DNA from: Candidatus Poseidoniales archaeon
GTDB lineage: Archaea; Thermoplasmatota; Poseidoniia; Poseidoniales; Poseidoniaceae
NCBI GenBank assembly: GCA_038106355.1
Contig: JAYODQ010000003.1
Span: forward strand, 2,534 to 66,533
Length of the DNA stretch: 64,000 nt
Direction of reading: 5' to 3'
The translations under genes and the position numbers were made by a program. The notes under the pieces are model-generated. The model was given only the letters and a program-made list of their open reading frames with translations, did not search any database and was not told the origin of the DNA. Shown piece by piece: positions 26,698 to 55,576 of this stretch (position 1 is its first letter; every line of letters starts with the position of its first letter).

Positions 26698-26723
26698 TGG
26701 GGTGCGTGTAGGGGTTGAGCCCC

Positions 26724-32700: not shown

Positions 32701-35700
32701 TTCAAGATTCCACGCTGAACTCTGAATTTGCTGATGTGAACCTCGGCGATAGTGCCTACTTGCAAAGTGGAACATTCTGTGGGACCTTGTATGCACATCA
32801 GTGCCGACTTGTTTTCAGCCTTGACCCTTCACAGGTTCCATTCGACGCCAATCAAAGTGTTCATTCAGCAGCCCTCGGATTGTACGTCGACGACTGGGAG
32901 AGCGCTCAATCGGCAACATTGATGACATTCAGAGTCTATCCTCTGCTCACAACCGCTTGGTCTCAATCTGGTTCGACATGGAATGAATCCTCCAGCGGTG
33001 TTGGATGGTCAACACCAGGTCTTGGCTCAGGTGTGGAGTATGGTTCAACCCCAATCTCCACCATTACGATGTCTGTGGGTCAAACTGGATGGATTTGGTT
33101 TGATATTGGTGCACCAGGAATGAATCTTGCGAACACCCAAGGGTGGGTCATCATCGGTTCATCGAATGTGGGCGTAGCACATGCTCAATTCTATTCCAGT
33201 GAGTATCAAGGCAACAGTGCCCTTCGGCCGAAAATATTGTTCAACACAACCAATATTTCGACCATTACCGTGACCCCAGGTGGTACAACAATTGACGCAG
33301 ATTCCACCCAGCTCTTTGCAGCCGTTGCAAAAGATTTCAACAGCGTCACAAAGTCTGTTCTGCTTGAATGGTCTTCGAGCAGCGGTAACATTGGGAGCAA
33401 TGGTCTCTTCACCCCAAGTGCAGCAGGTACGCAAACCGTGCAAGCATGTTTTGGCCTTGTTTGTGGAACACAAACCATCATTGTCACCGCCGGTGCACCC
33501 GTTACACTGCAAGTCACTCCGTTGACTGCGACCATCACCGCCGATGAGACACTTACCCTGACTGCAAACATGGTTGACCAACATGGTAACCCTGTAACAG
33601 GCGTTTCACTCACCTATACTCCATCCAATGGAAGTATGAGTGCGGTGATGCCTAATATTTTCCAACCATATGCCGTCGGTCAACATACCATCCTTGTGTC
33701 ACATCCAGCATCGGGCAATTCAGTAACCATCGATGTCACCGTCACCAATGGTGCACCTGCTTATTTTGAAGTGAGTGGCTGCGAAGGAACCGTTGCTGCA
33801 GGTGTTTGGTGCGAGATTACAACGCGACTGTTTGATCAGTTTGGCAATCTGCTCGACATTGAAGATGCAGGAGCATTAACTTGGACAACGACCAATGGAA
33901 ATTATTCTGATGTCAACGATGAGTATTTCCCTGACCATGTCGGTTCATGGCATCTGAACCTTTCTTCAGCCGTAGGCTTGACATATTCTCTTCCAATTAC
34001 AGTTGGTCATGGTGAAATGGCATACCTTGAGATTACATCCTCAGGTTTGGAAATTACAGCGGATGAAATCATTTACCTCAACACAACTCGAATTGATGTA
34101 CGAGGAAATAGATTACCAGTGTACCTGCCGAGTAACAATTGGACGAAGATTCAAGATGGTATCCTGACCCCTGGTCAGCCGGCTTCTTGGGAACCAAAAT
34201 CCAGAGGTTCCAAGGTGCTTGAAGCACGTTATGAAGATAAATCCACTCAAATCACCATCGTGGTTTTGGACGGTCAAATTCAGCGTTTGATTCTCCTTGT
34301 CGATGGTGAAGAAGTATCAGGTACGTCACAAGAAATGACAGCGGATGATTCGATGGAAGTTAAGGTTCGAGCAACGGATAGCAAAGGAAATATTTGGGAA
34401 TTGAATGCTGAATGGATTGTCAATCACCCATCGATTGCTTCTGCATCATCATCCCTTGAAGAATATCAGGGCGGCGTTGTGATCGAACGTTCTGTCATTT
34501 TCAGTCCATACAAAGCAAGCAGTTCCTCTTACACGATTCGTGCATCGTTTACGCAAGACAATACAACTCACACAACACAATTTGAAGTGAAGGTGTCTGC
34601 TGGTGTTCTTGAATCTGTCATCATCAATGCCATGGCGGGTGATGGTGTACCCAATACTCAATTTGAGATATCTGCGGACGATTCTATCCAATTTGCGATT
34701 ACGCTGACCGATGCCAAGGAAAATCCAGTGGATTCATCAAATGTTCGATGGTTGCTCTACAACCGAGACACAGATGCTGTTAGTGACATCACTGTGGCCA
34801 TGTTGTATCATGGTTTGATGTGGAACGCAACAAAGGTTGGAAATTACGAGATTGTTGCCTATGACGTCAGTTCAACCAACTACAACATTTCTGACAGTGT
34901 TCTCATTACGGTGTACCATGGAGAGGCCATTGAATTGATTCTCTCCTCAACGAACAAAACCATCGTTGCTGGCTCAATTGTTGAATTATCGGTCACTGGC
35001 AAAGACGCTGATGGTAATTTGTTCGCCCAAAATGTCGATTGGTATGAAGGTGGTGATGTTGTCGAAGGACTTGAATCAAATGAGGATGAAGACGGAGCGT
35101 ACCAATACACAGGGACGATAGCAGTAATTCATACCCTTACATTTGAATATGGTATCGCCCAATCGAGTGTTGAGATTACTGTCTTACCACAAGCCATCAC
35201 TGCACGACTCGAAGTCGAGTTAAGCACAACGACCGTTGAGCAACTTGGTTCGTTTGAGGTATACATTCGTGCCTTTGACATGTACGACAACGAAATTGAA
35301 GTTCCTTCAAGTGTTCAAGTCGATGCATCTGGAAGGGGTACTGTGATGATGATCAACACCTCCACATGGAAAGTTACGACGCTCGATGAAGGCACTCAGA
35401 GTGTCACCATCAGTGTTGGCCCAGTGCTTGAAAAAGTCGAATTTTCAGTCACAGGTACACTCGAAGGCTTCTTTGAAGCCGGCGGTACGCTGTATTATGT
35501 TGGAGCAGTCCTTGGTGCAATTGCTTTGCTTGGAGCGATCATTGGTCTGGTTATCTTCATGCGGTCAAACAAAACAGACTGGGACCTTGAAGACGAGGAA
35601 GACGATGATGATGATGATGATACACCAGTCCAAAAGCCAACACCGGCAGGTCTCAAAACTGGTCCAACCGGTGCTCCACCAGCAGCCGGTCCTTCAGGAC

Positions 35701-35909
35701 CACCACCCTCGGGCGGCCCAAGTGGACCACCGCCAGCCGATGTTGAAGAGGTGCCCGAAGACGTCGAAGAAGAGGAGGAGGCTTGGGATTATACCCAAGA
35801 TGAAAGTTACCGAGTCGATGAAGCTGGCACTGAGTGGTACCAAGACGATGAAGGTACGTGGTGGTACAGGGAAGAGAATCAAGAAGATTGGAGCGCGTGG
35901 GAAGAGTGA
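26724..35909 (+). CDS. Giant surface protein (~3061 aa): signal/anchor, at least 7 alternating FN3-like and DNRLRE/CBM-like modules, about 10 Ig-like (Big_2-type) repeats, a TM helix, and an acidic/Pro-rich cytoplasmic tail ending in a Trp-rich motif.
   Basis: The N-terminal hydrophobic segment is LTVFLLVSLFLCADLLL. Recurrent module starts are DTYI/DTFI/DTYL...N-Y/F-G/N...L. Recurrent motifs of the form tYhWRVRA...WS..F appear. C-terminal repeats look like ITVTPGGTTIDADSTQLFAAV and LQVTPLTATITADETLTLTA. The TM is LYYVGAVLGAIALLGAIIGLVIFM (~35488-35561). The listed TTG at 26715 is possible, but ATG 26724 is preferred. Confidence 0.85.
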   Translation: MLLRKDTSSKLTVFLLVSLFLCADLLLPQTQDGWEVLETKNQVSHAISNHYVIADTYINESSPGTNYNGSDTGYLIPTDGEETRILLDFPMNFTSSDIIYNASVELTCTILSGQSTSEISVYPARMSQGWNSTIVSWSYYANNLLWAQGGADGASDRFDWEPPSLATSTGVLAINVTSLAQQAAKNNLGKLRLILAATGTSYACDLSETQNSNSQPVLVIDSSTGTPTSGGAVEFNLPIEDGAPWMTSDFILTAETTPTIAYKNHTASDVELQLSHSSDWKDGVVVTNERHYSTLWNSFQTSGSSGSFTIPSSDEFSNGTNVYARIRSIDTNLQMSAWKETSFILPSHSITDNGDGTATLTIETNDLGLELDFIEDATVSQTSVTSNFGTSQTLDTSMTASKEVLGHIRLRLNQLGLHDNLTIVESSMSYVRSSYSGNSIVSLHGMEESGVWLEDEITWNQMSNSGVNWYDGGRSNGTATIDVLNVNQSSSTFEFNLTQAVQNYLDDSDADPMDMFVALRGKFESYSNGESLVLHSSDTSTGNDPSFQLTYKWGSGAPSPVTITAPEDGLAMWNKTGDNLSGNTQPSLNWSISSSSDNILFQIARDEDFRLRDLVLDTRVDNDFSPTDGTFTMNGSRTLSKGNMYFWRMATVDSAGHYGTWISSSFMVSNLESTYLGNDRYEFRIRHGNGTNDNQYPECMDTFIDSSSVNANYNGDSEMSIEYNNPDKTTILMGCNLVSNLLPAGYAVESAQLHVTLTDAPYNAPVIGAWESRQHNWSDDDATWSSYDASNSWATAGANGWERGALLSSLTLGSSYFGNDVVEFNVTQAVQNAMREGRRVDFIIDQIGVPSGGFSSAYFNTAESSTEAYRPEITFVYMPGSNAVPQNPTLTSPLNGSWSIGTGVDLTPISTPQFEWNFTGSMAIGGWVVQLDNVSTFDSGNAVTYTSWNDAGFDVQNETFTPSSSLTTGKTYHWRVRAISSTNQIGNWSSVNSFHLPDLTTWVENSTTAAVEIHHHDALPHLQIPHLYDTYIIENGSGASSTYATSQTLRVGRHSNGYNAVALLKIPLSAIPQPANARVVNAELNVFSDLNSDQSLPIAVRPVLVNWNESANSTTYDGVNNWTQLGGRSIGNDVGLYSDIVETVTDDWMNWDVTELVQLAIANSQTHLSVMLYAPSSTTSDALLYSTSYPTASKRPWLNLTWSAGAASTPTTAAINSLPANNAVMWDTNSHAVQANFRPTMSWTYSGSNITAWRVFILQDSNDDMQGLYTYDSRVNTSAFDLQNLQFTPPADLDFSEEIRWIVQPVRDGMIGPRSSSTIFYIPTVVGGEVNSTDAHLMIQEGSMIDALNYPTATQDTYLDSGNTQANQGSSDSLFAGRSANSYNTASLRSSSLISIQLSSVPLPTTYEVVNATLDVDVTSFTGNAISISVSEMLSTWSESSSWAYPAGNTSAWQGIGAYHSADSDGINDIQIVNSTGLVQFNITAILQHALASGQTSLNVILQPEEDSNGNVVGRAQFASSEHNNITIRPRINMTYRTNPSWAMPAPGSLLPADGTILWDATSSLPAGQDTSYFSITPAVSNETRFVYCKSNEPRFSVETECFDTNDPGQGQTFYSSNNTLEINNMDKGDFWTYWRVRSDQDHRIGEWSAVHSFRNPNNIGTNNSGNYTVNLSRGTVFSVSGLLPEAQDVSLSTNQTSTAGAAASMNLGFSSSGEAQIFVEFDLSDIHFPANAMPTNVILKLYRSSLTGNSASTISAHACNSFDESTVVWSTKPTCSPTEITRTTLTLLPPNQWIDWDITGLAQDNFANGNYTFSIMLKSVGTPLTTHTFASAESSSSQFWPTLSFEYVDNVNNITPPSQPSLNSPNDGEVLYNLTNGLLSSNQYPTLSWNAVSGASGYMLTISNETGVYKFRSWEQNSGISGTTFQFTNALTPGEIFTWWVSAFNQSIPGASSARWTFAIGDPSHTYNSNTEIFTYEFQTGNEVESFGHTNIQDSTLNSEFADVNLGDSAYLQSGTFCGTLYAHQCRLVFSLDPSQVPFDANQSVHSAALGLYVDDWESAQSATLMTFRVYPLLTTAWSQSGSTWNESSSGVGWSTPGLGSGVEYGSTPISTITMSVGQTGWIWFDIGAPGMNLANTQGWVIIGSSNVGVAHAQFYSSEYQGNSALRPKILFNTTNISTITVTPGGTTIDADSTQLFAAVAKDFNSVTKSVLLEWSSSSGNIGSNGLFTPSAAGTQTVQACFGLVCGTQTIIVTAGAPVTLQVTPLTATITADETLTLTANMVDQHGNPVTGVSLTYTPSNGSMSAVMPNIFQPYAVGQHTILVSHPASGNSVTIDVTVTNGAPAYFEVSGCEGTVAAGVWCEITTRLFDQFGNLLDIEDAGALTWTTTNGNYSDVNDEYFPDHVGSWHLNLSSAVGLTYSLPITVGHGEMAYLEITSSGLEITADEIIYLNTTRIDVRGNRLPVYLPSNNWTKIQDGILTPGQPASWEPKSRGSKVLEARYEDKSTQITIVVLDGQIQRLILLVDGEEVSGTSQEMTADDSMEVKVRATDSKGNIWELNAEWIVNHPSIASASSSLEEYQGGVVIERSVIFSPYKASSSSYTIRASFTQDNTTHTTQFEVKVSAGVLESVIINAMAGDGVPNTQFEISADDSIQFAITLTDAKENPVDSSNVRWLLYNRDTDAVSDITVAMLYHGLMWNATKVGNYEIVAYDVSSTNYNISDSVLITVYHGEAIELILSSTNKTIVAGSIVELSVTGKDADGNLFAQNVDWYEGGDVVEGLESNEDEDGAYQYTGTIAVIHTLTFEYGIAQSSVEITVLPQAITARLEVELSTTTVEQLGSFEVYIRAFDMYDNEIEVPSSVQVDASGRGTVMMINTSTWKVTTLDEGTQSVTISVGPVLEKVEFSVTGTLEGFFEAGGTLYYVGAVLGAIALLGAIIGLVIFMRSNKTDWDLEDEEDDDDDDDTPVQKPTPAGLKTGPTGAPPAAGPSGPPPSGGPSGPPPADVEEVPEDVEEEEEAWDYTQDESYRVDEAGTEWYQDDEGTWWYREENQEDWSAWEE
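35604..35621 (+). repeat. (GAT)6 trinucleotide microsatellite encoding a poly-Asp run in the cytoplasmic tail.
   Basis: Read directly: gac gat gat gat gat gat gat, which translates to D7. Confidence 0.9.
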
Positions 35910-35930: not shown

Positions 35931-38555
35931 ATGCTCAACAAAGTCTTCACATCTTCATTGCTGATTGCCCTTTTCCTTTGTTCGACAATGCTCAGCGTAG
36001 GTCCTCAAGAATTTCTTGAAGACTCTTCCACCAATTCAAAGTCAAATGTTGTGAATCGAGTTAATGTGACAAGCGATAGCATGACTATGACAGCTGATGA
36101 AATCATGCAATTTTCAGCGACATTGTACACCACAACCAACACCACCATTCAAGACGATGTCAATTGGTCTTCATCGAATGGTACCATCACAAGCGATGGT
36201 ATTTTCTATCCTTGGACGGCTGGAGTTGTTCAAATTGAAGCCGAATATGGCGGAGTTCGTGGTGAGTTCAATATCACAGTCACGCCAGGTGCGGCAACCT
36301 CAATATCCATTGTTTCAACAACAGCCTCAGTCCTTGAACAAAATCAACTTCAAGCACAAGTAACGGATGGTCGTGGCAACATAAAACCAGCCTCAGCACA
36401 GACGGTGTGGGATATCGAGGGAGAATACATTGGGACTGGTTCACCTGTATGGATTCCAGAAGAAACTGGTGACTTTTCGATTCGAGCCAGATTGTATCAA
36501 CTTGAAGCGGATTCGACCATCACTGTGGTTGCCGGCTCACCTCATTCCTTCGTCTTCCCAGATTATATGACGGTCATTGCGGGTCAGTCCTACACGCTGA
36601 ATCCTCAACTGCTCGATATGAATGATTATTCCATGCCACTTACTTCCGCAGGATCTCTGTCATGGTGGGCTGAGCGTGGAGCTATCAATGAATTCGGTAA
36701 TTATTCCTCGACCGATACAGGAATTTGGAATGTGACTGTGACAGCAGGAAATGTTACTGGGGTGGGACAAATTCACGTTGTGCCAGGTACTGCAGTCGTT
36801 TCTCAAGTCATCATTGTCGACCAAAGGGAGGTGTATGTAGCCGGGCAACCCTATGAGGTGGCAGTTGAGCGACGAGACGTCAATGGATACATTGGCCTCG
36901 TGACCCCCGAACTTGGATATTGGAGCGTGTCCTCTGGCGGACTATCACTGAACGAAAATAAGGTGATGTGGACACCTTCGAGGACTGGAATAGCCACAGT
37001 GAGTACAACCGATGATGGCATTTCCTCGAGCATTCAAGTTGAAGTTGTCCATGGTAACGCTTTCGAAGTTTCAATTCGTTCAAGTCATGTGGCTCCTCAC
37101 GCTGGTGACCAAGTCGTCTTGGAGATGATTGCTGTCGATATTAAAGGAAATGTTTGGGTCGTGAATGGCAGCCTCGATTTCCTCAAAGGAAACACCAACG
37201 AATTGACAACATACGAAACCTACACACTCCTTCAGGCCGCTTCGACAGGTCAATGGGATATCGAGGGAACATGGTTTGATACCTCCACCAACTCCGAATT
37301 TATCGCTACCCTCGATTTTGAGGTCACCGCCGGTCGATTGGCTTTTATTGCTCTTGAAGGCGATGGGCAAATTCTCCCTGCTGACCAAACCTTTGACCTC
37401 AATCCTCAATTTTACGATGCTTACGGAAACCAACTCACCTCAATTGAATTGAATTGGAGCATTGATGGCAAAGACGCAACATTACAGATGCGTCTCAACG
37501 ATAATGTTTGGGCATCATCGGTTCTCGGTGGTCACGAAATTCGAGTGAACGCCGACGGTATTTTTGGAACCGTGCGACTCAATGTCGTCCCTGGAGCAGC
37601 ACACTCTTTACTGACTGATGCAGAAGGTGGACTCGTCGTGTTTGCTGGTGTTCCAGTCGATTTGTTTGTTGAGGTCGTTGATATTCATGGAAATGTAGGT
37701 GAGTCTTCTTTGCTTTCCACTTCAATTGATGCATCCATTGGTGAACTCGAAGCCTCATCCACCGGTGTGGGGTATTGGTCCTTCACTGGAAAAATAAGCG
37801 GGTCGTATGGACTTCAACTCATCGAAGGGGATGCAAGCCACACGATACCACTCACCGTTCTTCCAGGCGAGCCTATTCGTATTCGAACAAACCTTCAATC
37901 TTCATCAATATCTCAAGGCGATATTATTCTCCTCGATGTTTGGGGGGTTGACGCGTATGATAATATCGTTGAAATTGACCATCAAAACACCACAATTACA
38001 TGCACTGCTGGTGATGCCATCCACGTGACATCTGGAACTTGGGAAATTGAAGTTTCACAATCGGGTAACGACCGATCTTGTACCATTCTTTGGCAAGGTT
38101 TGCTTGCGCAGAACTTTTTCGACGTTGATGAAGTTCTGTTTGGTGGTGCAGTGGGTTCAACCAACACAGCCATAGGCATCTTGACATTTCTGCTCCTGCT
38201 CATTTTGGTGGTGATGATCGTCCTTGTTAGGAAGGCCAGTGCAGTCCCCCTCAATAATTGGGTTGAAGATGAGTTTGAACAGGCCCCCACTCAACAAGAT
38301 ATGCCCGCACCATCGCCCCCAGTGGAGACACCGGTTGCTTCCCAACCACAACAAAAAGCAAATCACATAGCAGGTCCAAGGCCCGACCTTGAGATTACCG
38401 TTCGCGACGACTTAGCACGAAAGGCAGTTGAAGTCGGTGTCATGCAAGCAGCTCCAGGAACCGAACAAGGTTCAACAGGTTGGTATGTCAACACGAAGTC
38501 AGGACTTGAAGCATGGGAAGTGACTGCGGACGGTGCTTGGAATAAATTGGAATAA
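35931..38555 (+). CDS. Surface protein made of Ig-like (Big_2-type) repeats, with a TM anchor and a cytoplasmic tail bearing a Trp-rich motif. Probably co-transcribed with the upstream giant gene.
   Basis: Signal peptide MLNKVFTSSLLIALFLCSTMLSVG. Repeats look like NITVTPGAATSISI, ITVVAGSPHSF, IHVVPGTAVVS and LNVVPGAAHSL. The TM is IGILTFLLLLILVVMIVLV (~38170-38228). It starts 21 nt after the previous stop, with GGAGG at 35918-35922. Confidence 0.85.
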   Translation: MLNKVFTSSLLIALFLCSTMLSVGPQEFLEDSSTNSKSNVVNRVNVTSDSMTMTADEIMQFSATLYTTTNTTIQDDVNWSSSNGTITSDGIFYPWTAGVVQIEAEYGGVRGEFNITVTPGAATSISIVSTTASVLEQNQLQAQVTDGRGNIKPASAQTVWDIEGEYIGTGSPVWIPEETGDFSIRARLYQLEADSTITVVAGSPHSFVFPDYMTVIAGQSYTLNPQLLDMNDYSMPLTSAGSLSWWAERGAINEFGNYSSTDTGIWNVTVTAGNVTGVGQIHVVPGTAVVSQVIIVDQREVYVAGQPYEVAVERRDVNGYIGLVTPELGYWSVSSGGLSLNENKVMWTPSRTGIATVSTTDDGISSSIQVEVVHGNAFEVSIRSSHVAPHAGDQVVLEMIAVDIKGNVWVVNGSLDFLKGNTNELTTYETYTLLQAASTGQWDIEGTWFDTSTNSEFIATLDFEVTAGRLAFIALEGDGQILPADQTFDLNPQFYDAYGNQLTSIELNWSIDGKDATLQMRLNDNVWASSVLGGHEIRVNADGIFGTVRLNVVPGAAHSLLTDAEGGLVVFAGVPVDLFVEVVDIHGNVGESSLLSTSIDASIGELEASSTGVGYWSFTGKISGSYGLQLIEGDASHTIPLTVLPGEPIRIRTNLQSSSISQGDIILLDVWGVDAYDNIVEIDHQNTTITCTAGDAIHVTSGTWEIEVSQSGNDRSCTILWQGLLAQNFFDVDEVLFGGAVGSTNTAIGILTFLLLLILVVMIVLVRKASAVPLNNWVEDEFEQAPTQQDMPAPSPPVETPVASQPQQKANHIAGPRPDLEITVRDDLARKAVEVGVMQAAPGTEQGSTGWYVNTKSGLEAWEVTADGAWNKLE

Positions 38556-38556
38556 T

Positions 38557-40209
38557 CTATTGTTCCTCAACGGCTGCTTCGTAAGCTTGGATAAAGTCAT
38601 CGATATCGATGACGCCGTCATCGTCGTCATCCACAACGTGAAAAATTCTTCTTAACTCATCGTTGGTAAATTCAAAATTGAGCGTTTTCATCGCATGGCG
38701 GAACTCTTGATAATTTAGGTGATTTTTCTCACCCATATCAGCAGCATGGAAGACTTTGATGCGCAACTCGTGCTCGGTAGGTGAGGGGTTTGCAAAGAGT
38801 GTTCTGAATGATTGAAAAGGCGTGACTCGGTCAATTGAATGCTTTTTGCCGTACAAAGAATAGGTGACCGATCCAACCAAGATGGCAATGCCAGCCCCCA
38901 TGATGCCTTTCGAGCCCATGATGTAAAGGAGATAGAAACCTGCTATGATGCCCCAAAATTGCATGAGTGGATAGAGTGGGGAGGAAAAGCTGGGGTGGTA
39001 ATTGCCGTGGATTTTGTTTGCTCTTCGAAAGATGAAAATTGTTCCACACATGAGAATGTAGACCATGATTTGGAATCCTGATGCCAATTTGGCAACATCT
39101 TCAACGGGTAGTTGTAAAATTGCAATCGCCATGAGGCCACCTGTGATGAGGATTGGCCAGTGTGGTGTCTCATATCTAGCATTTACATTTTCGAGGGCTG
39201 TCGGGAGGAGGTTATCTCTTGCCATCGCAAAAAGGAATCGAGATGAGGCGAGCAATCCAGCAAGGGCACCTGAAATCATGGTCAGAACGGCGAGAGCTGC
39301 GATAAAGATGGCAATTTCATTGCTCAACACCTGGTCAACAAAGACATAGATAGGGGCTTCGTTGGTGCTCCTATCATCGTTCAACCACCACTCGCCTGGA
39401 ACAGCAGCCATCATAATGAAGGTGAGAACACAATACAAGAAAGTCGCAATCAAAAGTGAAATGAGGATACTTGAGGGCAAATTTCGTTCTGGTTCTTGCA
39501 CTTCGCCTCCAATAGCGGTGACTTTGATGACGCCAGCATAGGCTACGAAGACAAAAGCTGCGGCACTTGCTACGTCTGTAAACTGAGCATCCATTGCACC
39601 GCGCCAAGGTCTTTGAACGTCAGTGGAATCGAGAAAGAGAGCGTACAATGCCACCAAAATGACGGCAATCATGGTGACCACCAGAATTGGTGCTTGTACG
39701 TTTTTGATTTTCTTCACGCCAAAGATATTGAGAATCGTAATGAGCACAAGTGCATAAAGTGCCACAGTCATGGTGTTGATGGTGATATCAAAATAATACG
39801 AAACGGCATGCAAATATGCTGAAAAACCAATCAAAGCGAAGGCTGATTTGAGCAAAAACGACGCCCATAGGCCCAGCCCAGAGATGGTTCCAAACCATGG
39901 CCCGTAAGCACGTTCAAGGTACACATAGGTGCCACCTGTTTTTGGAATTGCACTCGAAATTTCTGCTTTTGAAATCGCGCCTGGAAGAACAACAAGAGCG
40001 GCTAACGCATAGGCCAGCCAGATGCCTGGACCCATGATGGCTGCGGCAAAACCAGGCAAAACAAAGATGCCAGAACCGACCATGGAGGCCAAGGAAATGA
40101 TGATGACCCCAACGAGCGTTAGGCTACGTTCAAGTTTTCCTGAGATGTCCTTCGCGACCCCTTTGATGTCACCACGCATGAGTTTGCCTGTGGTTGATTT
40201 CAAATCCAT
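38557..40209 (-). CDS. APC-superfamily amino acid permease fused to a C-terminal EF-hand pair.
   Basis: About 12 hydrophobic helices with APC-type organisation (SLASMVGSGIFVLPG near TM1). The C-terminal ~75 aa contain DMGEKNHLNYQEF and the canonical loop DDDDDGVIDIDDF (38593-38631). Confidence 0.8.
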   Translation of the reverse strand: MDLKSTTGKLMRGDIKGVAKDISGKLERSLTLVGVIIISLASMVGSGIFVLPGFAAAIMGPGIWLAYALAALVVLPGAISKAEISSAIPKTGGTYVYLERAYGPWFGTISGLGLWASFLLKSAFALIGFSAYLHAVSYYFDITINTMTVALYALVLITILNIFGVKKIKNVQAPILVVTMIAVILVALYALFLDSTDVQRPWRGAMDAQFTDVASAAAFVFVAYAGVIKVTAIGGEVQEPERNLPSSILISLLIATFLYCVLTFIMMAAVPGEWWLNDDRSTNEAPIYVFVDQVLSNEIAIFIAALAVLTMISGALAGLLASSRFLFAMARDNLLPTALENVNARYETPHWPILITGGLMAIAILQLPVEDVAKLASGFQIMVYILMCGTIFIFRRANKIHGNYHPSFSSPLYPLMQFWGIIAGFYLLYIMGSKGIMGAGIAILVGSVTYSLYGKKHSIDRVTPFQSFRTLFANPSPTEHELRIKVFHAADMGEKNHLNYQEFRHAMKTLNFEFTNDELRRIFHVVDDDDDGVIDIDDFIQAYEAAVEEQ

Positions 40210-40319: not shown

Positions 40320-41723
40320 TTATGCTTGAGCGATGACCTTCATTTCGACGGCAATCGGTGTTGGTAATGCATCGATAGCAATCGTCGTTCGCGTTGGTCC
40401 AACTTGGCCAAGTGTTTTGGCCCAAACTTCATTGTATCCCTTGAAATCACGGTCCATATCAATAAGAAACGTTGTGACGTCGAGAACCTTGTCAATCGAT
40501 GAACCGGCTTCAATCAAAATGCGTTCAATATTATCGATGACGGCTTGGGTTTGTGCCTTGATGTCGTAATCAAGTGGTTGTCCGTTTTCATCATGAATGG
40601 GTCCACCAGGAATGGCGTTGGTTCCAGGTTGCCTTGGCCCTACACCAGAAAGATAGAGCAGGTCACCAACTTTTCTTGCGTGAGGATATGCACCTACAGG
40701 TTTCGGTGCTGCATCGGAATTCACTGAACCTTCAGCTTTGGTTGGCTCCCATAATTCCGGGCCGTTTTTTGAAGAAGGTGCCTGCTCTCCACTGATTTGG
40801 TCAGAGGCATCATCTGCATCCAACACGTTTCGGTCACCAGAATAGGTCTCAACATCATCCTCATCGTATTCTTTGTCACCCATGCCCGTGGGTGTAGGAT
40901 CGATGTAGACCACAGCCCCACCAGCACCGTGCAATGCTTCGTAGGCAAGCACCCGTCCGGAAAGGTCGTTTCGATTTCCGTTCATCGCCGATAACCACCA
41001 CATCGGTTTGAACGTCACAACCTTTTGTACACGGATTTGCTGATGAATTGTCCTCGATAATTGACCGACATCCTCAAGTCTTCCTTCTTCAAGAAATTCG
41101 AGGATTTTTCGGTTCCATTCGTCGTCCTTGAGCGAGTGGATTCGGTCTTCTTCTGGAGCGATAAAATCGGTAAACATTCGATTTGAAAGGGACATTGCTG
41201 TGATGGCAACCGCTTTCCTTCCTTGTTGTCGAAGCACATCGAGACATGCTTTTGCAAGCACCGTGGTTTCAGCACGGTTTGCATACACATTGGAGGAGAC
41301 GATGACCGCAGGGATTTTGTTACCAGGATTGAGCAGAGTCAGAGCAACAACTGAACCAACATCGATTGGAAATCCTTTGTAATTGACGCATCGACTTTGT
41401 AGGCCTCGTTTTTTGTTGGCCTCGTTCCATGCATGGGCAAAATCAGCATCGATGTTGAACGAGTAGGGAATGCTGCCTAGGTCATGAAAATCGTGGTCGA
41501 CCATGACCCATTCTGGATTTGGGTCTGCCTGAATTTGATGACCGATAATGCTCGGCCACGTGGTGGAGTAAATGATGAGGAGGTCTGCACCCGAGTCTGC
41601 AATCATGTTCGCTGCTTCATCGTAGGCATCTCGGAGTCGACGCCAACCTTCGTTCATGTCTGGGGCAAGAACGGTATGAGGATGGACAGGAACGACAAGA
41701 TTGCCTACGATGACATCACTCAT
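40320..41723 (-). CDS. Fusion protein: LigB-family extradiol dioxygenase-like domain with degenerate active site (AmnA-like non-catalytic subunit), acidic linker, then RidA/YjgF/TdcF-family (deaminase-type) domain.
   Basis: Aa 1-278 parallel the adjacent LigB-type protein, but SPHW is replaced by STTW and SLSHRHF by SLSNRMF. Aa 279-340 form an acidic, low-complexity linker. Aa 341-467 read VGAYPHARKVGDLLYLSGVGP...DKVLDVTTFLIDMDRDFKGYNEVWAK...PTRTTIAIDALPTPIAVEM, the RidA/YjgF pattern. Confidence 0.7.
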   Translation of the reverse strand: MSDVIVGNLVVPVHPHTVLAPDMNEGWRRLRDAYDEAANMIADSGADLLIIYSTTWPSIIGHQIQADPNPEWVMVDHDFHDLGSIPYSFNIDADFAHAWNEANKKRGLQSRCVNYKGFPIDVGSVVALTLLNPGNKIPAVIVSSNVYANRAETTVLAKACLDVLRQQGRKAVAITAMSLSNRMFTDFIAPEEDRIHSLKDDEWNRKILEFLEEGRLEDVGQLSRTIHQQIRVQKVVTFKPMWWLSAMNGNRNDLSGRVLAYEALHGAGGAVVYIDPTPTGMGDKEYDEDDVETYSGDRNVLDADDASDQISGEQAPSSKNGPELWEPTKAEGSVNSDAAPKPVGAYPHARKVGDLLYLSGVGPRQPGTNAIPGGPIHDENGQPLDYDIKAQTQAVIDNIERILIEAGSSIDKVLDVTTFLIDMDRDFKGYNEVWAKTLGQVGPTRTTIAIDALPTPIAVEMKVIAQA

Positions 41724-42622
41724 GCATTTGCCTCCTCATGTTTGTGCACTGGCCACTCAACGATGGCATTGCCAGTTCCGATGATGGTGCCATAGCCGTG
41801 CAAAATTGCTGGATATTGTGGTATGCCGAGGGTGGAAAGAAGCCATGTGAGTCCGCCGCCGTCACTTTCTGCAATGGCTTGCTCGGTGAATTCGGGCATC
41901 TCATCGATGATACGCTGTGCTTGACCGCTTCGCATGTAGTCGATCATTCGCATGTCCCAAAGATGCATGGCGTGGCTCGTGATGTGTTCTTTGCTCATAT
42001 CTTCAGGCATGTCGGATTCCGATGTGAAGTGCCTGTGCGAGAGCGAATTACTGGCGAGGACAACCACACGCTTGCCACTGGCAAGAATTGCTTTACGCGT
42101 AATTCGACCAAGTTCGAGCATCATCTCTTGCATCACTTCGACCGAATAGTAGTGGGTTGAGCGGTTGCTCGAAATGACCACAAACGGTTTATCCCAAGTT
42201 GGATTGAACATGTGCCCGGTGGTGATGGTACCATAATCCACTCGAAAGTCGGGATTGGTCATCATCTTGGTCGGCAAACCAGCCTCGGCAGCAGCGTCGC
42301 AAATGGCTTGTGAAAGTTCGATATCGATGTTAATGTCGTAATGGTAGCGGAAGAGGTTTGGAAAAATGGGGTCAACGGACAAACTTTTGAAATTTTCAAG
42401 ACCGAGAAAATGAGTGCCAACATAGGTTTGCCAGTGCGGTGAGAGAAGCACAATCGAATCGTATTCGATGTCTTTGAGTGACTCTCGAAGACGTTCATAG
42501 CCCCATCGAAGTTGCTCCCAACCCCCTTCAGCAACGGGTTCGTTTTGTGGAGGGTTTTCTGCATAGACAAGATGTGGAGGATGTGGTGCAAGGCAACCAG
42601 CGACAATCTTTCCTTCGCCCAT
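41720..42622 (-). CDS. Class III (LigB-type) extradiol ring-cleavage dioxygenase catalytic subunit, AmnB-like.
   Basis: GCLAPHPPHL, LLSPHWQT and NSLSHRHF match the LigB-family His ligand and catalytic His contexts. Its TGA overlaps the ATG of the downstream gene (ATGA at 41720-41723). The listed GTG at 42637 is an alternative start. Confidence 0.75.
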   Translation of the reverse strand: MGEGKIVAGCLAPHPPHLVYAENPPQNEPVAEGGWEQLRWGYERLRESLKDIEYDSIVLLSPHWQTYVGTHFLGLENFKSLSVDPIFPNLFRYHYDINIDIELSQAICDAAAEAGLPTKMMTNPDFRVDYGTITTGHMFNPTWDKPFVVISSNRSTHYYSVEVMQEMMLELGRITRKAILASGKRVVVLASNSLSHRHFTSESDMPEDMSKEHITSHAMHLWDMRMIDYMRSGQAQRIIDEMPEFTEQAIAESDGGGLTWLLSTLGIPQYPAILHGYGTIIGTGNAIVEWPVHKHEEANA

Positions 42623-42692
42623 GATACCTCGAAACACACGTGCCCTAAAGCCCCATCGCTGTAATTTTCAACAGACTTCATTCATGTGCTTT

Positions 42693-43607
42693 TCATTCCG
42701 CAGCAACATTGTTAATCGTATAGAGTACTCTACCTTCACGAGTGTCGGTAATGGTCACGTCAATGGTACAAGCAGTGTTACAAAGGTCTTGGCCGTTTTC
42801 CTTGATTCGGAAACCGTCACCAGCACTGAGAACAGTGTTGGTGATGTCTGTACCAAACTCTTCAAGCACACAAGGTCCGGTACCGTCGATACCTGGGTTG
42901 TCGCATGTTTGTGGTACGCCGCCATTCACTTCGATCTTGACCGAAATGGCTGACCAGCCGATGTCGTTGCCTTGGTCCATTGTAATTCGGATGAGGTAGT
43001 CAGTTGTGTCTGTACCTGGGTTTCCAGTGTCGTCTTCACCTGTAAATTGGTACAAGGCATAATTTGGGGTATATGCATCATCATGCCACCAACGTAGTGG
43101 TGATATACTAATGCCGCTATCAACAAAGGCTGAAGACCCGTGACCATGTTCATCGAGAGCAATAAATGCAAATGAAATTCGGTAGGATGTATTTGACATT
43201 GGGTGTGGATTCCACAGCGAGGTAGGAATCGATACATTGGTGTAACCACTGTGCTGACTCACACTTACATCGATGTGGCCATCCAAATCCACATCGTAAC
43301 CCATTGTAAGATTATCACCATCGATATCGACAACAGCATGGTAGACAACAATCGTTGTGTAGTTGATCATTGTGAGTGAGATGGGTAAACTTTGATTGAA
43401 AGATGAAGAATAATTGACAGAAGGGTCATCGGTGTATGCGTGGTCTAAGAGAATTGAAGGTGCGTGATTTGGTGGAACAACAGACGTCGAAGGGGAAGCA
43501 CTTACGCTGCCATCTTCTGGATTGACACACCCCGCAAGTAAAGAGGTTGAAACAAGCATCATGAGAATCAATAGGTTTCGCATGAGAAGTGCTAACTTTT
43601 TGTTCAT
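42693..43607 (-). CDS. Secreted lipoprotein-like protein with DxDxDG-type acidic (Ca-binding-like) motifs.
   Basis: MNKKLALLMRNLLILMMLVSTSLLAGC carries a lipobox-like L-A-G-C. It also contains VVDIDGDNL and DVDLDGHID. Confidence 0.6.
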   Translation of the reverse strand: MNKKLALLMRNLLILMMLVSTSLLAGCVNPEDGSVSASPSTSVVPPNHAPSILLDHAYTDDPSVNYSSSFNQSLPISLTMINYTTIVVYHAVVDIDGDNLTMGYDVDLDGHIDVSVSQHSGYTNVSIPTSLWNPHPMSNTSYRISFAFIALDEHGHGSSAFVDSGISISPLRWWHDDAYTPNYALYQFTGEDDTGNPGTDTTDYLIRITMDQGNDIGWSAISVKIEVNGGVPQTCDNPGIDGTGPCVLEEFGTDITNTVLSAGDGFRIKENGQDLCNTACTIDVTITDTREGRVLYTINNVAAE

Positions 43608-43669
43608 ATTATGATTTCTGCACAACATCAACCTACAGGGCTTTTGAAGGCGCAGTTTGAGGGGTCCTC

Positions 43670-44164
43670 ATGACCGAGGAGGGGGGGCTCATCGCCGAGG
43701 AGCAAGTGGCTATCGAAGTCGCTGGCCCAGTCGGACATGGTCAACGAGATGTCGCATTGCATAGCCTTGTGCCATTTGTGATTGGAGGATTGCTCGGTGG
43801 ATACTGGCAAGCCTACCACTTCGATTCGATGACCTATGGACTGCCAACTCCGCCACAATTTGCACTTTTGTGTTGGATTGTCCTTTCGACGATTTCGTTT
43901 CCAGTGTTGTGGAAAGAGCAACCGGGTCGGTGGCCTGAGTATTTGGCTGGTACCTGTTCGCTCGCCCTCCCTTTGTTGCTTGTTTGGGTCACTGGTTACG
44001 GCAGTTTACTGTGCGGTGCGTACCTTGCTGGCATAGGATGGATTGTCGTGAGTGCTTCTTGGCCAAGGCTGACCTATCCACCGTTTCGCTACGGTATCTG
44101 GCACGTTTTGAGCGTCAACATCGGTGCGTTTTTTTGCTCCATTCTCGTTTATCAAACGTTTTGA
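43670..44164 (+). CDS. Hypothetical membrane protein (~4 TM).
   Basis: The ORF has several hydrophobic helices. No motif recognised. Confidence 0.45.
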   Translation: MTEEGGLIAEEQVAIEVAGPVGHGQRDVALHSLVPFVIGGLLGGYWQAYHFDSMTYGLPTPPQFALLCWIVLSTISFPVLWKEQPGRWPEYLAGTCSLALPLLLVWVTGYGSLLCGAYLAGIGWIVVSASWPRLTYPPFRYGIWHVLSVNIGAFFCSILVYQTF

Positions 44165-45823: not shown

Positions 45824-46813
45824 TCATTGAACGCTGTATTCAATCGATACCCCTTCGCTTCTCATCGTTTCGATGATGAATTCAATGGTTTTGGTGGACA
45901 GCGATTCGGGAGCATACACGCCATGTTGTGGAAACAACGGTTCGTTCAACCATGCCATTGCACAGCAGTAGGTCACAAGTCCGGTTGTTCTTGCCATACT
46001 TGAATCACCATCTTTGCCTCCGTCTTCAATCACCCACACGTGTGTAGCACCACCCGCTTCGACTCGGACTTCCATCCACGTGAATTCGGCTCGGGTTGGG
46101 TCAAATTTCCACGCATCCACGAGTTCATCGGGTGTGAGATTCGTGTTTTGGTACCGCCCAATGTGACCAGGCCATCTCACGGTGTATTCACCCATCGAGG
46201 TTGCTGGAACGTCCATGAGTGACCGCAGTCCATCAGTCAAAAACGCCTCCATGATTCGGCCATTGGCATCGATGGTGTGAAGGTCGGACATCGCTGGTAC
46301 GATGGTTTGCATCCCTTCGGCAATGATTCTTGCAGGTCGAGTGTATTCTGCAATGACATCGTGAGGTGAAAACGGTGCCATGTACGACCAAGCATCATCA
46401 GGCTCGGCAGGGTTCCCACCCACTTTGATGGTGACCTTGTCGAGGTGGCCAAACTGCCGTTGAGCGAGGGCGACAAGCATGTTTGAAAGTCCGGGTGCAA
46501 TACCAACATCCCACAAAATCTGACATTGAACCGTGGCATGTCGGTCAGGGGTTTCTTCACTGAAGGATAAATCGATGATTCGCTGGTTTGAATCTTTCAG
46601 GGCATTGATGATGAGATGGCCAATGGAGCCTGGAACCATGTTGATGATAAGGTCGGCCGATGCGTGGTCTGCATCGAGTGCTGACATGTGGTGGAAATGT
46701 GCAAGCGTGTCGCGCTGGACCACATCGAACAAATGCACTTCGACACCTGCTTCGACGAGTTTGCGGGTCACATACGAACCGACGAGCCCTCCGCCCAAAC
46801 AGTGCACACGCAT
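45824..46813 (-). CDS. Saccharopine dehydrogenase-family NAD(P) oxidoreductase.
   Basis: The N-terminal Rossmann segment is MRVHCLGGGLVGSYVTRKLVEAG. DVGIAPGLSNML and the C-terminal domain layout are typical of Sacchrp_dh proteins. Confidence 0.6.
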   Translation of the reverse strand: MRVHCLGGGLVGSYVTRKLVEAGVEVHLFDVVQRDTLAHFHHMSALDADHASADLIINMVPGSIGHLIINALKDSNQRIIDLSFSEETPDRHATVQCQILWDVGIAPGLSNMLVALAQRQFGHLDKVTIKVGGNPAEPDDAWSYMAPFSPHDVIAEYTRPARIIAEGMQTIVPAMSDLHTIDANGRIMEAFLTDGLRSLMDVPATSMGEYTVRWPGHIGRYQNTNLTPDELVDAWKFDPTRAEFTWMEVRVEAGGATHVWVIEDGGKDGDSSMARTTGLVTYCCAMAWLNEPLFPQHGVYAPESLSTKTIEFIIETMRSEGVSIEYSVQ

Positions 46814-46866: not shown

Positions 46867-47187
46867 ATGACGACACAAAATACACGCCCTGCTGAAGAAA
46901 TTGATTTGAAGATTCCAAACGATGTCCATCCATTTGACCCGAATGCATCGACAGAACCTCCACAATTGTTCAAAGTCCTCATCGATGGCAAACCCGGTCT
47001 TGCGGGTATTGGTTCACTCGGAGGCTACAGCGATCGAATTCTCTTGGTTTTTGATGAACCTCATCCCGAATTTGGAGAAGAGTTCGTAACGAAATATTTC
47101 ATGTTTGACAACAATGAACCAGGTCTGCTCCTGTGGGGGCACGAAAATCGCAGTTTCAAAATCGATTTGGTCATTGAAAACGAATGA
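46867..47187 (+). CDS. Hypothetical small protein (106 aa).
   Basis: The ORF has a plausible promoter. No motif recognised. Confidence 0.45.
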   Translation: MTTQNTRPAEEIDLKIPNDVHPFDPNASTEPPQLFKVLIDGKPGLAGIGSLGGYSDRILLVFDEPHPEFGEEFVTKYFMFDNNEPGLLLWGHENRSFKIDLVIENE

Positions 47188-47532
47188 TCACTGACCGATG
47201 AGTTGGTAATCCTCGCTCAGTGGTGTAGCACCTGTTTCGACTCGGATGATTTTTCCTTCTGAAAATTCGTAGAATGTAAGCACTGCTTCCGACGTTGAGC
47301 CGTTGGCAAAGTGTGCGAGACAATGGTCGACGCCCACTTCAGTGTTTTCAAAGAGAATTCGAATTCCTTCAGTTCTGACCATGCCGGAACCAGCGAAGGC
47401 CATGATGTCGTTCTTGGTCATGACTGCACCGCCGACATGGGGGTAGAATTTACAATCGTCATGGATCACTTCATCCATGAGTTCTTTATTTCCGGTTTCA
47501 AATGCTTGATGGTATCGTTCTAGGATGCTCAT
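47188..47532 (-). CDS. SnoaL-like / NTF2-fold protein.
   Basis: MSILERYHQAFETGNKELMDEVIHDDCKFY is a typical SnoaL_2/NTF2-like N-terminus. The size (114 aa) fits. Confidence 0.55.
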   Translation of the reverse strand: MSILERYHQAFETGNKELMDEVIHDDCKFYPHVGGAVMTKNDIMAFAGSGMVRTEGIRILFENTEVGVDHCLAHFANGSTSEAVLTFYEFSEGKIIRVETGATPLSEDYQLIGQ

Positions 47533-47598: not shown

Positions 47599-49044
47599 TC
47601 ACTCATGAACACAAACATTGAGAAGTTCGCTAAAGAAATTGAGCGACCAGTCGCCACCTTCCCTACCAACACCCGAGTTTTTGACGCCACCAAATGGCGT
47701 TCGAAGGTCTCGGTGGAGCCAAGTGTTGACCCAAAGGATACCGGTTTCAACCTTGGTGGCGAGTTGATGACCACGCTCTTTGTCACCTGTCCATATTGAA
47801 CCAGCAAGGCCATACGTTGTGCCATTGACCATCTCAAGCAGGTCGGTCTCCGTATCGTAGGTATGGAGTGTGACCACGGGCCCAAAAATTTCCTCGGTAG
47901 CACAGCGAGAGGTTGCTGACAAACCACCAATGACCGTTGGGCGAAGGAAGGCTGAACCTGTTGGAACATTGGCCACAGGATGTTGTTCTGAAGTGCCTCC
48001 TGTGAGGATGTGCCCGCCCTCCTCGACAGCGAGCTTGATGTAGGATTCGACTTTGCTTCGATGCTCAACCGAGATAAGTGAGCCCATGTTGGTGGTTTCA
48101 TCGCGTGGATTGCCTACCTTGAGTTGCTCAACATGCCATGTGAATGAACTTGCAAATTCATCGTATCTGCTGTTGTGGACAAAGATTCTCGAGCCACACA
48201 AACAGATTTGGCCAGAATTGGCAAACGATGCACGAACGATGCCGTTCATCATCTCGTCGAGAGGGGCATCGTCTAGGACGATGGTCGCATTTTTTCCGCC
48301 GAGTTCAAGCGAGAGTTTCTTGAACATGGGTGCGGCTGTTGTGGCGACTATTTTCCCAGTTGCCGTGCCACCGGTAAACGAGATACCCTGTATGTCAGGA
48401 TGCTCAATGATGGCTTGACCTGCTTGAGGGCCAAGTCCGTGTACGAGATTGAACACCCCTTTTGGCAGACCGATGTCGTCCAACACCTTGGCAAGGAATG
48501 TAGCCGTTTGAGGGGTCATTTCCGAAGGCTTTGCAACGATGGTGTTGCCCATGAGCAGGGCGGGTGCTACTTTCCATGACAGCAAATAGAGCGGAAGATT
48601 CCAAGGCGTGATGAGCCCAACCACTCCGATTGGTTTTCGATGAACATAATTGGTGGCTTGGTCCATTTCATATTTGAGATCGGGCAGTTGTCTGCCGTGG
48701 TCGGCAAAAAATCGGAAATTAGCAACCGAGCGGTAAGCATCGATGTTTCTCGCAAGTGAAATTGGTTTTCCCGTATCTTCCATTTCAAGAGCAATGATGG
48801 TGTGAGATTGTGCTTGAAGAGCATCAGCGATGGAGTAGAGCCAATTGATCCGTTCTTCAAACGACGTTGCCTTCCAAGAGGGAAGTGCCCGAAGAGCCGC
48901 TTTGGTAGCGAGGTCAACATCGGTTGCATCACTTGCAGGAACCGAACCAATGAGCGTCCCAGTGGCTGGGTTGATGTTGTCGATGGTAGCGTTCGAGTGT
49001 GCTGCTACAAATTCACCATCGATGTAATTGAGTACATCAGCCAT
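47599..49044 (-). CDS. NAD-dependent aldehyde dehydrogenase, 2-hydroxy/2-aminomuconic semialdehyde dehydrogenase-like (ALDH8/XylG/AmnC-like).
   Basis: General ALDH motifs are ITPWNLPL, VAKPSE, ELGGKN, the catalytic Cys context GQICLCGSR and EEIFGPV. The C-terminal VWVNTWLHRDLRTPFGGVKNSGVGREGG...SLNFFSE..NVCV resembles the muconic-semialdehyde dehydrogenase subfamily as I recall it. ATG 49044 lies 2 nt after the upstream stop. Confidence 0.75.
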   Translation of the reverse strand: MADVLNYIDGEFVAAHSNATIDNINPATGTLIGSVPASDATDVDLATKAALRALPSWKATSFEERINWLYSIADALQAQSHTIIALEMEDTGKPISLARNIDAYRSVANFRFFADHGRQLPDLKYEMDQATNYVHRKPIGVVGLITPWNLPLYLLSWKVAPALLMGNTIVAKPSEMTPQTATFLAKVLDDIGLPKGVFNLVHGLGPQAGQAIIEHPDIQGISFTGGTATGKIVATTAAPMFKKLSLELGGKNATIVLDDAPLDEMMNGIVRASFANSGQICLCGSRIFVHNSRYDEFASSFTWHVEQLKVGNPRDETTNMGSLISVEHRSKVESYIKLAVEEGGHILTGGTSEQHPVANVPTGSAFLRPTVIGGLSATSRCATEEIFGPVVTLHTYDTETDLLEMVNGTTYGLAGSIWTGDKERGHQLATKVETGILWVNTWLHRDLRTPFGGVKNSGVGREGGDWSLNFFSELLNVCVHE

Positions 49045-51411: not shown

Positions 51412-51460
51412 CGCTCCCGCCACCTTCTTCCAATCGTTGTATGCTCATAATGAGTGTGGC

Positions 51461-53908: not shown

Positions 53909-53942
53909 GTTATTGACACGATGAAGAAACCTATGAGCCTTG

Positions 53943-55349: not shown

Positions 55350-55576
55350 GTTGCTTCGGTTTCGCTGGAGGACATGAACCATTCGGAGATGAGATACGGC
55401 CGAGAAGTGCAATTGAAGCGAGGAATGAACTTAGGTCAACCTAGCCATTCGAGATTCACGTTGCCATGACCTTTGATGGTCCATGGAACGCCCTTCAAAT
55501 TCAACGAAGCGGAAATGAGAGCATTTTAACATTGTACGGTCATAAGAATCATGAAGACATAGCGGTTGGACAGGGT

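Follow-up and report, generated by a model that had tools for sequence, protein, structure and literature searches.

A putative AmnAB-type aminophenol dioxygenase carrying a deaminase-type RidA domain in marine Poseidoniaceae archaea and in bacteria

Most of what is known of the enzymes for the meta-cleavage of 2-aminophenol comes from bacterial degraders of nitrobenzene and aniline pollutants. Their ring-cleaving 2-aminophenol 1,6-dioxygenase (AmnAB or CnbCaCb; PDB 3VSG-3VSJ, 8IHG and 7TXY) consists of two homologous LigB-fold subunits encoded in the order beta then alpha, with the iron site in beta only, and it is an alpha2beta2 tetramer joined via beta (PMC10470539). Both of the following intermediates are unstable. 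2-Aminomuconate semialdehyde cyclises spontaneously to picolinate (PMC3790839), and 2-aminomuconate decays slowly by itself; the generic human RIDA did not deaminate it, whereas a specialised deaminase was active (bioRxiv 10.64898/2026.06.05.730449). The bacterial amn clusters hold two RidA-family genes, amnD, which codes for the deaminase, and amnJ, the role of which is unknown (PMC3790839). We have analyzed a stretch of 64,000 nucleotides from a Candidatus Poseidoniales archaeon (assembly GCA_038106355.1, contig JAYODQ010000003.1, positions 2,534 to 66,533; hereafter the window) in which an AmnA-like gene is fused to a RidA domain. Judging from its sequence, the locus quite probably encodes an AmnAB-type dioxygenase with a 2-aminomuconate deaminase tethered to its alpha subunit, and an aldehyde dehydrogenase (ALDH) for the step in between.

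The upstream gene of the pair (41720-42637, on the reverse strand like the other conserved genes of the locus given below) is an open reading frame (ORF) of 305 aa from a GTG at 42637, although the likely start is the ATG at 42622, in agreement with the N-termini of solved homologues. The protein contains LAPHPPHL, LSPHW and SLSHRHF, has a Pfam LigB match (2.8e-20), and finds in the PDB 8ihg_A (7e-112), 3vsg_B (1.7e-104) and 7txy_B (2.7e-94), being 52-60% identical to enzymes characterised on 2-aminophenol. In the alignment the columns for the iron ligands and catalytic His read H, H, E and H, as in the solved beta chains 3vsg_B and 8ihg_A; these columns we take to be His13, His62 and Glu251 of CnbCb, with His195 as the catalytic His. 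The gene appears to belong with AmnB/CnbCb and apart from other LigB enzymes: this group scores between 1e-104 and 7e-112, and the next-best LigB family, the 3,4-dihydroxyphenylacetate dioxygenases (HpaD-type, 8iq8), only 1.6e-9. The original prediction, made from the letters of the window, had read it as a catalytic LigB dioxygenase next to a degenerate partner, and its coordinates and motifs (APHPPHL, SPHW and SLSHRHF in one gene, STTW and SLSNRMF in the other) were all found to be right.

The downstream gene (40320-41723, stop codon at 40320-40322) codes for a fusion protein of 467 aa. The two genes meet in GCATGAGT, where the fusion ORF begins in an ATGA stop/start overlap (41720-41723), its ATG (41723-41721) overlapping the TGA of the beta gene (41722-41720). 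This 4-nt overlap is kept in 60 of 79 related loci and would couple the translation of the two genes. Residues 1-278 (40890-41723) constitute an AmnA-type and apparently non-catalytic alpha domain with a Pfam LigB match and the motifs STTW and SLSNRMF. Residues 5-272 match the alpha chains of the PDB (3vsg_A 1.2e-39, 8ihg_B 2.4e-36, 7txy_A 3.6e-34), with lower scores for the beta chains (1e-21 to 1e-24). V13, T55, Q233 and N181 stand where beta has its His/His/Glu ligands and catalytic His, making a site as degenerate as that of CnbCa (G, Q, D, G). The same holds for the homologues of the fusion: in 59 of 59 the metal-ligand columns have G/V, Q/T and D/Q, none has His/His/Glu, and the column of the catalytic His is N in 46, S in 7 and His in 4. 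As aligned, no homologue among the 59 seems to keep the iron site, which is what had been predicted of a non-catalytic AmnA-like partner. A second catalytic paralogue was also considered for this domain, and is ruled out by the ligand columns.

An AlphaFold2 model of the fusion, built on 59 sequences (mean predicted local confidence, pLDDT, of 83), has two well-folded domains, the first of which Foldseek superimposes on 3vsg_A with a template-modelling (TM) score of 0.92 and a root mean square deviation of 2.1. They are separated by a linker of 62 aa (residues 279-340, 40704-40889) with 17 D/E and 4 K/R, which is predicted to be disordered, with pLDDT below 50 at residues 290-320. The linker is 60-82 aa long and strongly acidic in the marine group IIa (MGIIa) archaea, and 23-100 aa and less acidic in bacteria.

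Residues 341-467 (40323-40703) form a RidA-fold domain (Pfam PF01042, Ribonuc_L-PSP, at residues 338-466, 6.7e-23). Its best PDB match is 6izh_A, the AmnE of Pseudomonas sp. AP-3 (8.8e-24, 87 bits), against at most 66 bits for generic RidA proteins, and the model of the C-terminal domain has a TM of 0.86 with 6izh. When AmnD and AmnJ sequences of pCNB1 and of a P. veronii plasmid were used for comparison, the domain was 39% identical to AmnD of P. veronii (100 bits) and 24-28% to AmnJ/CnbJ (45-50 bits); in three related fusion homologues the identity to AmnD was 41-46%. A neighbour-joining tree (no bootstrap) puts all the fused RidA domains together with AmnD and with stand-alone homologues linked to ALDH, apart from triple-RidA proteins and AmnJ. 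The RidA-site residues R445 and E460 are invariant in the 59 homologues. The closest stand-alone relative that we found (56-61% identity) adjoins an ALDH in a bacterial cluster (L087) with genes for 3-hydroxyanthranilate 3,4-dioxygenase (3-HAO) and 2-amino-3-carboxymuconate semialdehyde decarboxylase (ACMSD). All this suggests a domain of the 2-aminomuconate-deaminase type, as the AmnD-like character proposed for it implied, and the pairwise scores and the tree lead us to reject an AmnJ-type or generic RidA. For the pair, chance similarity is ruled out by the E-values obtained with the solved structures of AmnB (7e-112), AmnA (1e-39) and 2-aminomuconate deaminase (9e-24).

Two other proteins deserve mention among the relatives of the RidA domain. 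P0127 (873 aa, from a JGI contig of 2.9 kb) has an ALDH followed by three RidA domains of the same deaminase type, joining steps 2 and 3. P0122 (430 aa), from the transcriptome of Diplonema japonicum in EukProt, is an apparent tandem triple RidA with three matched stretches and three visible repeats; this diplonemid sequence could be real, prey-derived or contamination.

The ALDH gene of the window (47599-49044, or up to 49101 with an alternative start) has its best PDB matches in 2-aminomuconate 6-semialdehyde dehydrogenases (4u3w 2.6e-146, 4i1w 1.6e-145, 7bzv 8.7e-139), and its translation holds the motifs ELGGKN and GQICLC, as expected of an ALDH with its catalytic Glu and Cys. It is in all likelihood an AmnC-type 2-aminomuconate 6-semialdehyde dehydrogenase (AMSDH), and the second step that had been assigned to it agrees with its neighborhood, since its synteny extends to 80 MGIIa loci and, in bacterial operons, it is contiguous with the dioxygenase genes.

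How frequent is this arrangement? Scanning GTDB with one genome per species we obtained 453 relatives, and the statements that follow cover the best 80 of these 453 (at least 77% identity). The fusion is present in at least 80 species of Poseidoniaceae, including the first MG-II genome of 2012 (CM001443.1). At 92-94% identity, the nearest relatives of the fusion gene belong to Poseidoniales and Poseidonia metagenome-assembled genomes (MAGs), i.e. to marine group IIa. The best 80 are labelled Poseidoniales, Poseidonia, euryarchaeote or Methanobacteriota, with a single one labelled Verrucomicrobiales. This last (NZEQ01000011.1, "Verrucomicrobiales bacterium ARS100", L023) shows the MGIIa synteny in full, its fusion gene being 79% identical to that of the window, and is probably a contig of Poseidoniaceae mis-binned into a bacterial MAG. 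In a large protein collection both domains were found in all of the 120 best clusters listed, with lengths of 463-488 aa. MGIIa loci with sufficient flanks share the gene order alpha/beta hydrolase, short-chain dehydrogenase/reductase (SDR), TPR protein, a 420-aa protein, asparaginase-II-like protein, ALDH, (Lon-N), panB, small membrane protein, AmnB, AmnA-RidA and amino-acid permease. The original prediction identified the enzymes of the module correctly, and did not see that they are part of a larger conserved operon.

Similar fusions are found in bacteria. Among representatives at 50% identity there were full-length fusions with 54%, 42% and 40% identity to the one of the window, and using the 42% relative (P0123) as the query we retrieved at least 120 further two-domain clusters (420-501 aa), including those of the cultured Oligoflexus tunisiensis, of Oligoflexus sp. 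and of a Bdellovibrionales MAG. The fusion is widespread in bacteria, so it is not specific to archaea. Its recurrence in at least 120 close clusters, 80 GTDB loci and at least 120 bacterial clusters with the same architecture rules out a frameshift or assembly artefact.

In the bacteria, the genes are contiguous on one strand. The operon of O. tunisiensis (L089) reads SDR, luciferase-like (LLM) flavin-dependent oxidoreductase, asparaginase-II-like protein, ALDH, AmnB, AmnA-RidA and a PF04199 cyclase-family protein. Two uncultured bacteria (L090 and L091) have the same order, and the locus of the 42% relative (L001) has it minus the last gene. The window proteins are 46-61% identical to their Oligoflexus counterparts. 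In L094 (GCA_016307145.1) the forward strand carries tryptophan 2,3-dioxygenase (TDO; TIGR03036, 273 bits, its stop overlapping the LLM start), LLM, a nuclease, asparaginase-II-like protein, ALDH, DUF4920, AmnB, AmnA-RidA and arylformamidase; divergent on the opposite strand are homologues of 2-oxo-3-hexenedioate (4-oxalocrotonate) decarboxylase and 2-oxopent-4-enoate hydratase. ALDH directly adjoins AmnB in L001, L089, L090 and L091, and in L094 only the small DUF4920 gene lies between them. An error-prone contig with a GC of 65% (L092) shows AmnB, AmnA-RidA and the cyclase-family protein, with a frameshifted TDO 3.4 kb off. The cyclase-family protein of L089 scores 209 bits with the arylformamidase model TIGR03035, for which the cut-off is 223. 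No kynurenine 3-monooxygenase, kynureninase, 3-HAO or ACMSD was found in any of the fusion clusters examined.

The cluster with the closest stand-alone RidA, L087, is a 10.6-kb ENA contig (GC 75%) with ACMSD, 3-HAO, an unknown protein of 205 aa, SDR, ALDH and RidA. Its SDR and ALDH are 51% and 53-56% identical to those of the window. No decarboxylase or hydratase is in view on that contig. In a neighbour-joining tree (no support values) the MGIIa RidA domain is placed beside the stand-alone P0279, with 61% identity, versus 58% to the Oligoflexus fusion. This placement might hint that the archaeal and bacterial fusions arose independently, but the two identities are almost the same.

Other relatives of AmnA were met in passing. 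In P0201 (1034 aa), P0220 and P0236 an AmnA-like LigB domain (30-34% identity) comes after a branched-chain amino-acid ABC permease domain, and in P0201 it is followed by an alpha/beta hydrolase with HGGYW and GHSAG motifs; these may be genuine fusions or artefacts of merged gene calls. The AmnA-like gene of P0146 stands alone on a contig of 1 Mb, with no informative neighbours.

What the enzymes act on, in which order, and how they assemble we infer as follows. The beta chain (41720-42622) would bind Fe(II) and cleave an o-aminophenol, most likely 2-aminophenol, to 2-aminomuconate 6-semialdehyde, with the alpha chain as a catalytically dead paralogue that stabilises beta. From this unstable semialdehyde the AmnC-type ALDH would make 2-aminomuconate by oxidation, which the tethered deaminase would in turn hydrolyse to 2-oxohex-3-enedioate and ammonium. 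The fusion may fix a 1:1 stoichiometry and hold the deaminase near the dioxygenase, limiting the loss of intermediates to picolinate or to spontaneous decay. RidA clefts sit at trimer interfaces (PMC6742747). Given such sites between the subunits of a trimer and the alpha2beta2 structure of AmnAB, the fusion must presumably assemble further, possibly as three tetramers around two trimers or one hexamer.

Several observations weigh against this interpretation. The fusion links steps 1 and 3, which are not consecutive, an unusual choice for channelling. Between the ALDH and the amnBA genes there are 3.7 kb in most MGIIa loci and 5 kb of unrelated genes in the window. Neither the window nor the sequence up to 10 kb from the fusion in the 80 MGIIa loci yielded a TDO, Cyclase-type formamidase, 4-oxalocrotonate decarboxylase, hydratase or aldolase, so the archaeal pathway is incomplete as seen. 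NCBIfam holds no AmnB model, and the AmnB score is below the equivalog cut-offs. Besides, the best NCBIfam model for the ALDH is that of 2-hydroxymuconic semialdehyde dehydrogenase (TIGR03216), with 564 bits, under its cut-off of 693.

In the 4-amino-3-hydroxybenzoate pathway of Bordetella sp. 10d, deamination takes place at the semialdehyde stage. In the same way the RidA domain could hydrolyse the enamine/imine of the semialdehyde to 2-hydroxymuconate semialdehyde before the ALDH acts, blocking the cyclisation to picolinate. This we consider unlikely, even if consecutive steps are the usual ones to be fused, it is the semialdehyde that is lost to picolinate (PMC3790839), the TIGR03216 match of the ALDH points to the hydroxylated substrate and ALDHs of this type accept both semialdehydes (PMC10470539). 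Actually, the closest relatives of the RidA domain are encoded right after an ALDH (L087 and L088) or fused to the C-terminus of one (P0127), and the domain clusters with AmnD, the characterised substrate of which is 2-aminomuconate.

The company of arylformamidase and TDO in the bacterial clusters, and the presence of the closest stand-alone relatives of RidA, ALDH and SDR in a 3-HAO/ACMSD cluster, might rather indicate that the dioxygenase replaces 3-HAO in an ordinary kynurenine pathway, acting on 3-hydroxyanthranilate or on another substituted aminophenol or catechol instead of 2-aminophenol. This appears improbable. The clusters seen have no ACMSD (Amidohydro_2), kynurenine 3-monooxygenase or kynureninase, and without ACMSD the carboxylated product of 3-hydroxyanthranilate cleavage would cyclise to quinolinate; the beta subunit, moreover, has its 52-60% identity precisely to enzymes assayed with 2-aminophenol. 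Finally, that the RidA domain is only a generic scavenger of reactive imines or an oligomerisation scaffold, as the broad Rid family model of NCBIfam (below cut-off) and the public annotation 'Rid family hydrolase' could suggest, is hardly credible for a domain clearly nearer to AmnD/AmnE than to generic RidA or AmnJ, with catalytic Arg and Glu invariant in 59 homologues and with a fusion partner and neighbours all from one pathway.

Supposing then that the locus acts on 2-aminophenol through AmnAB, ALDH and tethered deaminase, where would this compound come from? Since TDO and arylformamidase share clusters with the module in bacteria, we infer that the aminophenol may derive from tryptophan via N-formylkynurenine and kynurenine. 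Between kynurenine and aminophenol the bacterial clusters offer only the LLM flavoenzyme and the asparaginase-like hydrolase, both of which are present in the window. The 420-aa LLM protein (50161-51423) has no match in Pfam and no sequence match in the PDB, and its AlphaFold2 model (pLDDT 81) is predicted to have the fold of a luciferase-like flavin oxidoreductase, Foldseek finding LLM monooxygenases, luciferase, Mer and a type II Baeyer-Villiger monooxygenase with E-values of 7e-14 to 1e-9. It is 41-46% identical to the LLM genes of L001, L089 and L094. One nucleotide separates its gene from that of the asparaginase-II (class 3, ReAV-like) family hydrolase (49047-50159; Pfam PF06089 2.8e-48, PDB 8cly/7os3 4e-16), and two nucleotides separate the latter from the ALDH, which it adjoins in archaeal and bacterial clusters alike. 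The motifs S-x-x-K, ASH, CSGxH, DGC and K-x-GA align with those of ReAV from Rhizobium etli, of which the two Ser-Lys dyads and the two zinc-binding Cys are kept (residue roles in PMC8602277). The zinc-binding Lys138 of ReAV is replaced by Glu (CSGEH), which may indicate a different metal site or substrate.

We tentatively propose that the flavoenzyme could insert oxygen into the aryl ketone of kynurenine in a Baeyer-Villiger reaction. The product would be the beta-(2-aminophenyl) ester of aspartate, able to rearrange to N4-(2-hydroxyphenyl)asparagine, and either this ester or the rearranged anilide would be cleaved by the asparaginase-like serine hydrolase to L-aspartate and 2-aminophenol. 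The AmnAB-deaminase fusion and ALDH would take 2-aminophenol to 2-oxohex-3-enedioate and ammonium. As a proposal only, this would explain both the lack of ACMSD and the presence of each conserved gene. The gene set (TDO and arylformamidase in bacteria; LLM, asparaginase-II-like hydrolase, AmnB, AmnA-deaminase, ALDH and SDR) might then represent an undescribed tryptophan catabolic route bypassing kynurenine 3-monooxygenase, kynureninase, 3-HAO and ACMSD, a possibility that we regard as doubtful though worth considering. If true, a natural source of 2-aminophenol would be identified, and MGIIa archaea, abundant in the sunlit ocean, would scavenge kynurenine-type products of tryptophan oxidation. 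The TDO/arylformamidase context without kynureninase in O. tunisiensis and uncultured bacteria makes a natural precursor of 2-aminophenol directly testable.

Two other conserved genes could take part. The SDR (52307-53122; Pfam adh_short_C2 3e-39), which besides its likeness to the SDR next to ALDH-RidA in L087 is 52% identical to the gene that opens the Oligoflexus operon, may follow the deaminase in the pathway and could, for instance, reduce 2-oxohex-3-enedioate. The alpha/beta hydrolase (53162-53995; Pfam BD-FAE/Peptidase_S9, motifs HGGFW and GHSAG), syntenic in MGIIa, is an uncertain candidate to replace the bacterial arylformamidase: its similarity to the kynurenine formamidase 4e11 is weak (9e-4), its best PDB match is a carboxylesterase, and it bears no real resemblance to the hydrolase domain of P0201.

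At the other end of the locus, directly downstream of the fusion gene and following it in most of the 80 MGIIa loci, there is an APC-family amino-acid permease (38557-40209; Pfam AA_permease 1.9e-45) that is a possible importer of the substrate. It ends in a C-terminal EF-hand pair (EF-hand_7 and EF-hand_1), an unusual fusion for an archaeal transporter. Between ALDH and AmnB, four genes of the window found no counterpart in the related loci by tblastn. One codes for a protein of 312 aa, hydrophobic at its N-terminus and lacking a Pfam match (42693-43631), and the others are a saccharopine-dehydrogenase-like protein (45824-46813), an ORF of 106 aa (46867-47187) and a SnoaL-like protein (47188-47532). 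They look like lineage-specific insertions into an ancestral cluster.

In the window, 33 ORFs were scanned with Pfam; the scanned set leaves aside 10671-11363 (230 aa), 43670-44164 (164 aa), 77-8221, 26715-35909, 35931-38555 and all the small ORFs. There was no FAA_hydrolase, HMGL-type aldolase or tautomerase among these 33, and among the scanned ORFs the lack of decarboxylase, hydratase and aldolase originally reported for the window is borne out. By its content the window is archaeal, as it also encodes the RFC small subunit, the PolD small subunit and GatD. Rfam detects a tRNA of 125 nt at 24253-24377 of the reverse strand that ARAGORN misses in bacterial mode, with a length suggesting an intron-containing archaeal tRNA. 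Six ORFs are very large (874-3064 aa): 77-8221, 18516-21239, 26715-35909, 35931-38555, 55466-58822 and, on the forward strand, 59667-63200. Two large ORFs scanned with Pfam have Ig-like, cadherin-like or NPCBM-associated domains and are probably cell-surface proteins; the one at 59667-63200 has no Pfam match.

We searched the literature and found no paper on the fusion of the dioxygenase alpha subunit to a deaminase, on its presence in Poseidoniaceae or on the seven-gene operon, and nothing relevant on aminophenol dioxygenase in MGII/Poseidoniales or on kynurenine linked to 2-aminophenol dioxygenase. A 2015 survey of Rid fusions mentions no dioxygenase partner. The enzymes belong to known families and it is their fused arrangement that is apparently undescribed. 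In this the original prediction stands, with the correction that the fusion is not confined to archaea, given its spread through bacteria including Oligoflexus and Bdellovibrionales-labelled MAGs. Publicly the fusion is annotated as 'Rid family hydrolase' or 'hypothetical protein', and as a consequence metabolic reconstructions of Poseidoniaceae miss the module.

Compared with the described AmnAB/CnbCaCb enzymes, the pair of the window has the same two LigB-fold subunits in the same gene order and an iron site predicted in beta only, and the alpha is 31-35% identical; the differences are the archaeal host and the extension of alpha by a linker of 60-82 aa and a deaminase domain. The window is not a canonical amn operon. 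The order amnRJBACDFEHG of the amn/cnb operons is not found in it, and unlike the clusters of Pseudomonas and Burkholderia it is without amnR, amnJ and the contiguous amnC-D-F-E-H-G. No MarR regulator, amnJ or contiguous decarboxylase, hydratase, aldolase and acetaldehyde dehydrogenase appeared among the scanned ORFs of the window, whereas the comparators L084 and L085 have those genes. The deaminase domain shares with AmnD/AmnE (6IZH) and with the bacterial and fungal deaminases of the kynurenine pathway the RidA fold and the Arg and Glu of the site. The known enzymes, in contrast, are free-standing proteins of about 140 aa, a homohexamer in the case of AmnE, and here the domain is C-terminal to a dioxygenase alpha subunit.

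The lower branch of the bacterial kynurenine pathway (3-HAO, ACMSD, AMSDH and deaminase, as in L087) has in common with the window the ALDH-deaminase pair and the SDR, with 51-61% identity, and would arrive at the same end product, 2-oxohex-3-enedioate. It differs in starting with a cupin-type 3-HAO followed by ACMSD, where here there is an AmnAB-type enzyme, and in having kynurenine monooxygenase and kynureninase where here there are the LLM and asparaginase-II-like proteins. A parallel in the handling of intermediates is the ARO bacterial microcompartment of Actinobacteria, which also combines AmnAB, ALDH and a deaminase around a toxic and unstable semialdehyde, and for which the natural precursor of 2-aminophenol was stated to be unknown (PMC10470539). 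In that system a protein shell encloses the steps; the present one has no shell genes and is coupled by covalent fusion instead. The fusion of deaminase and dioxygenase would be a third way to manage unstable aminomuconate intermediates, beside co-expression from an operon and the ARO microcompartment.

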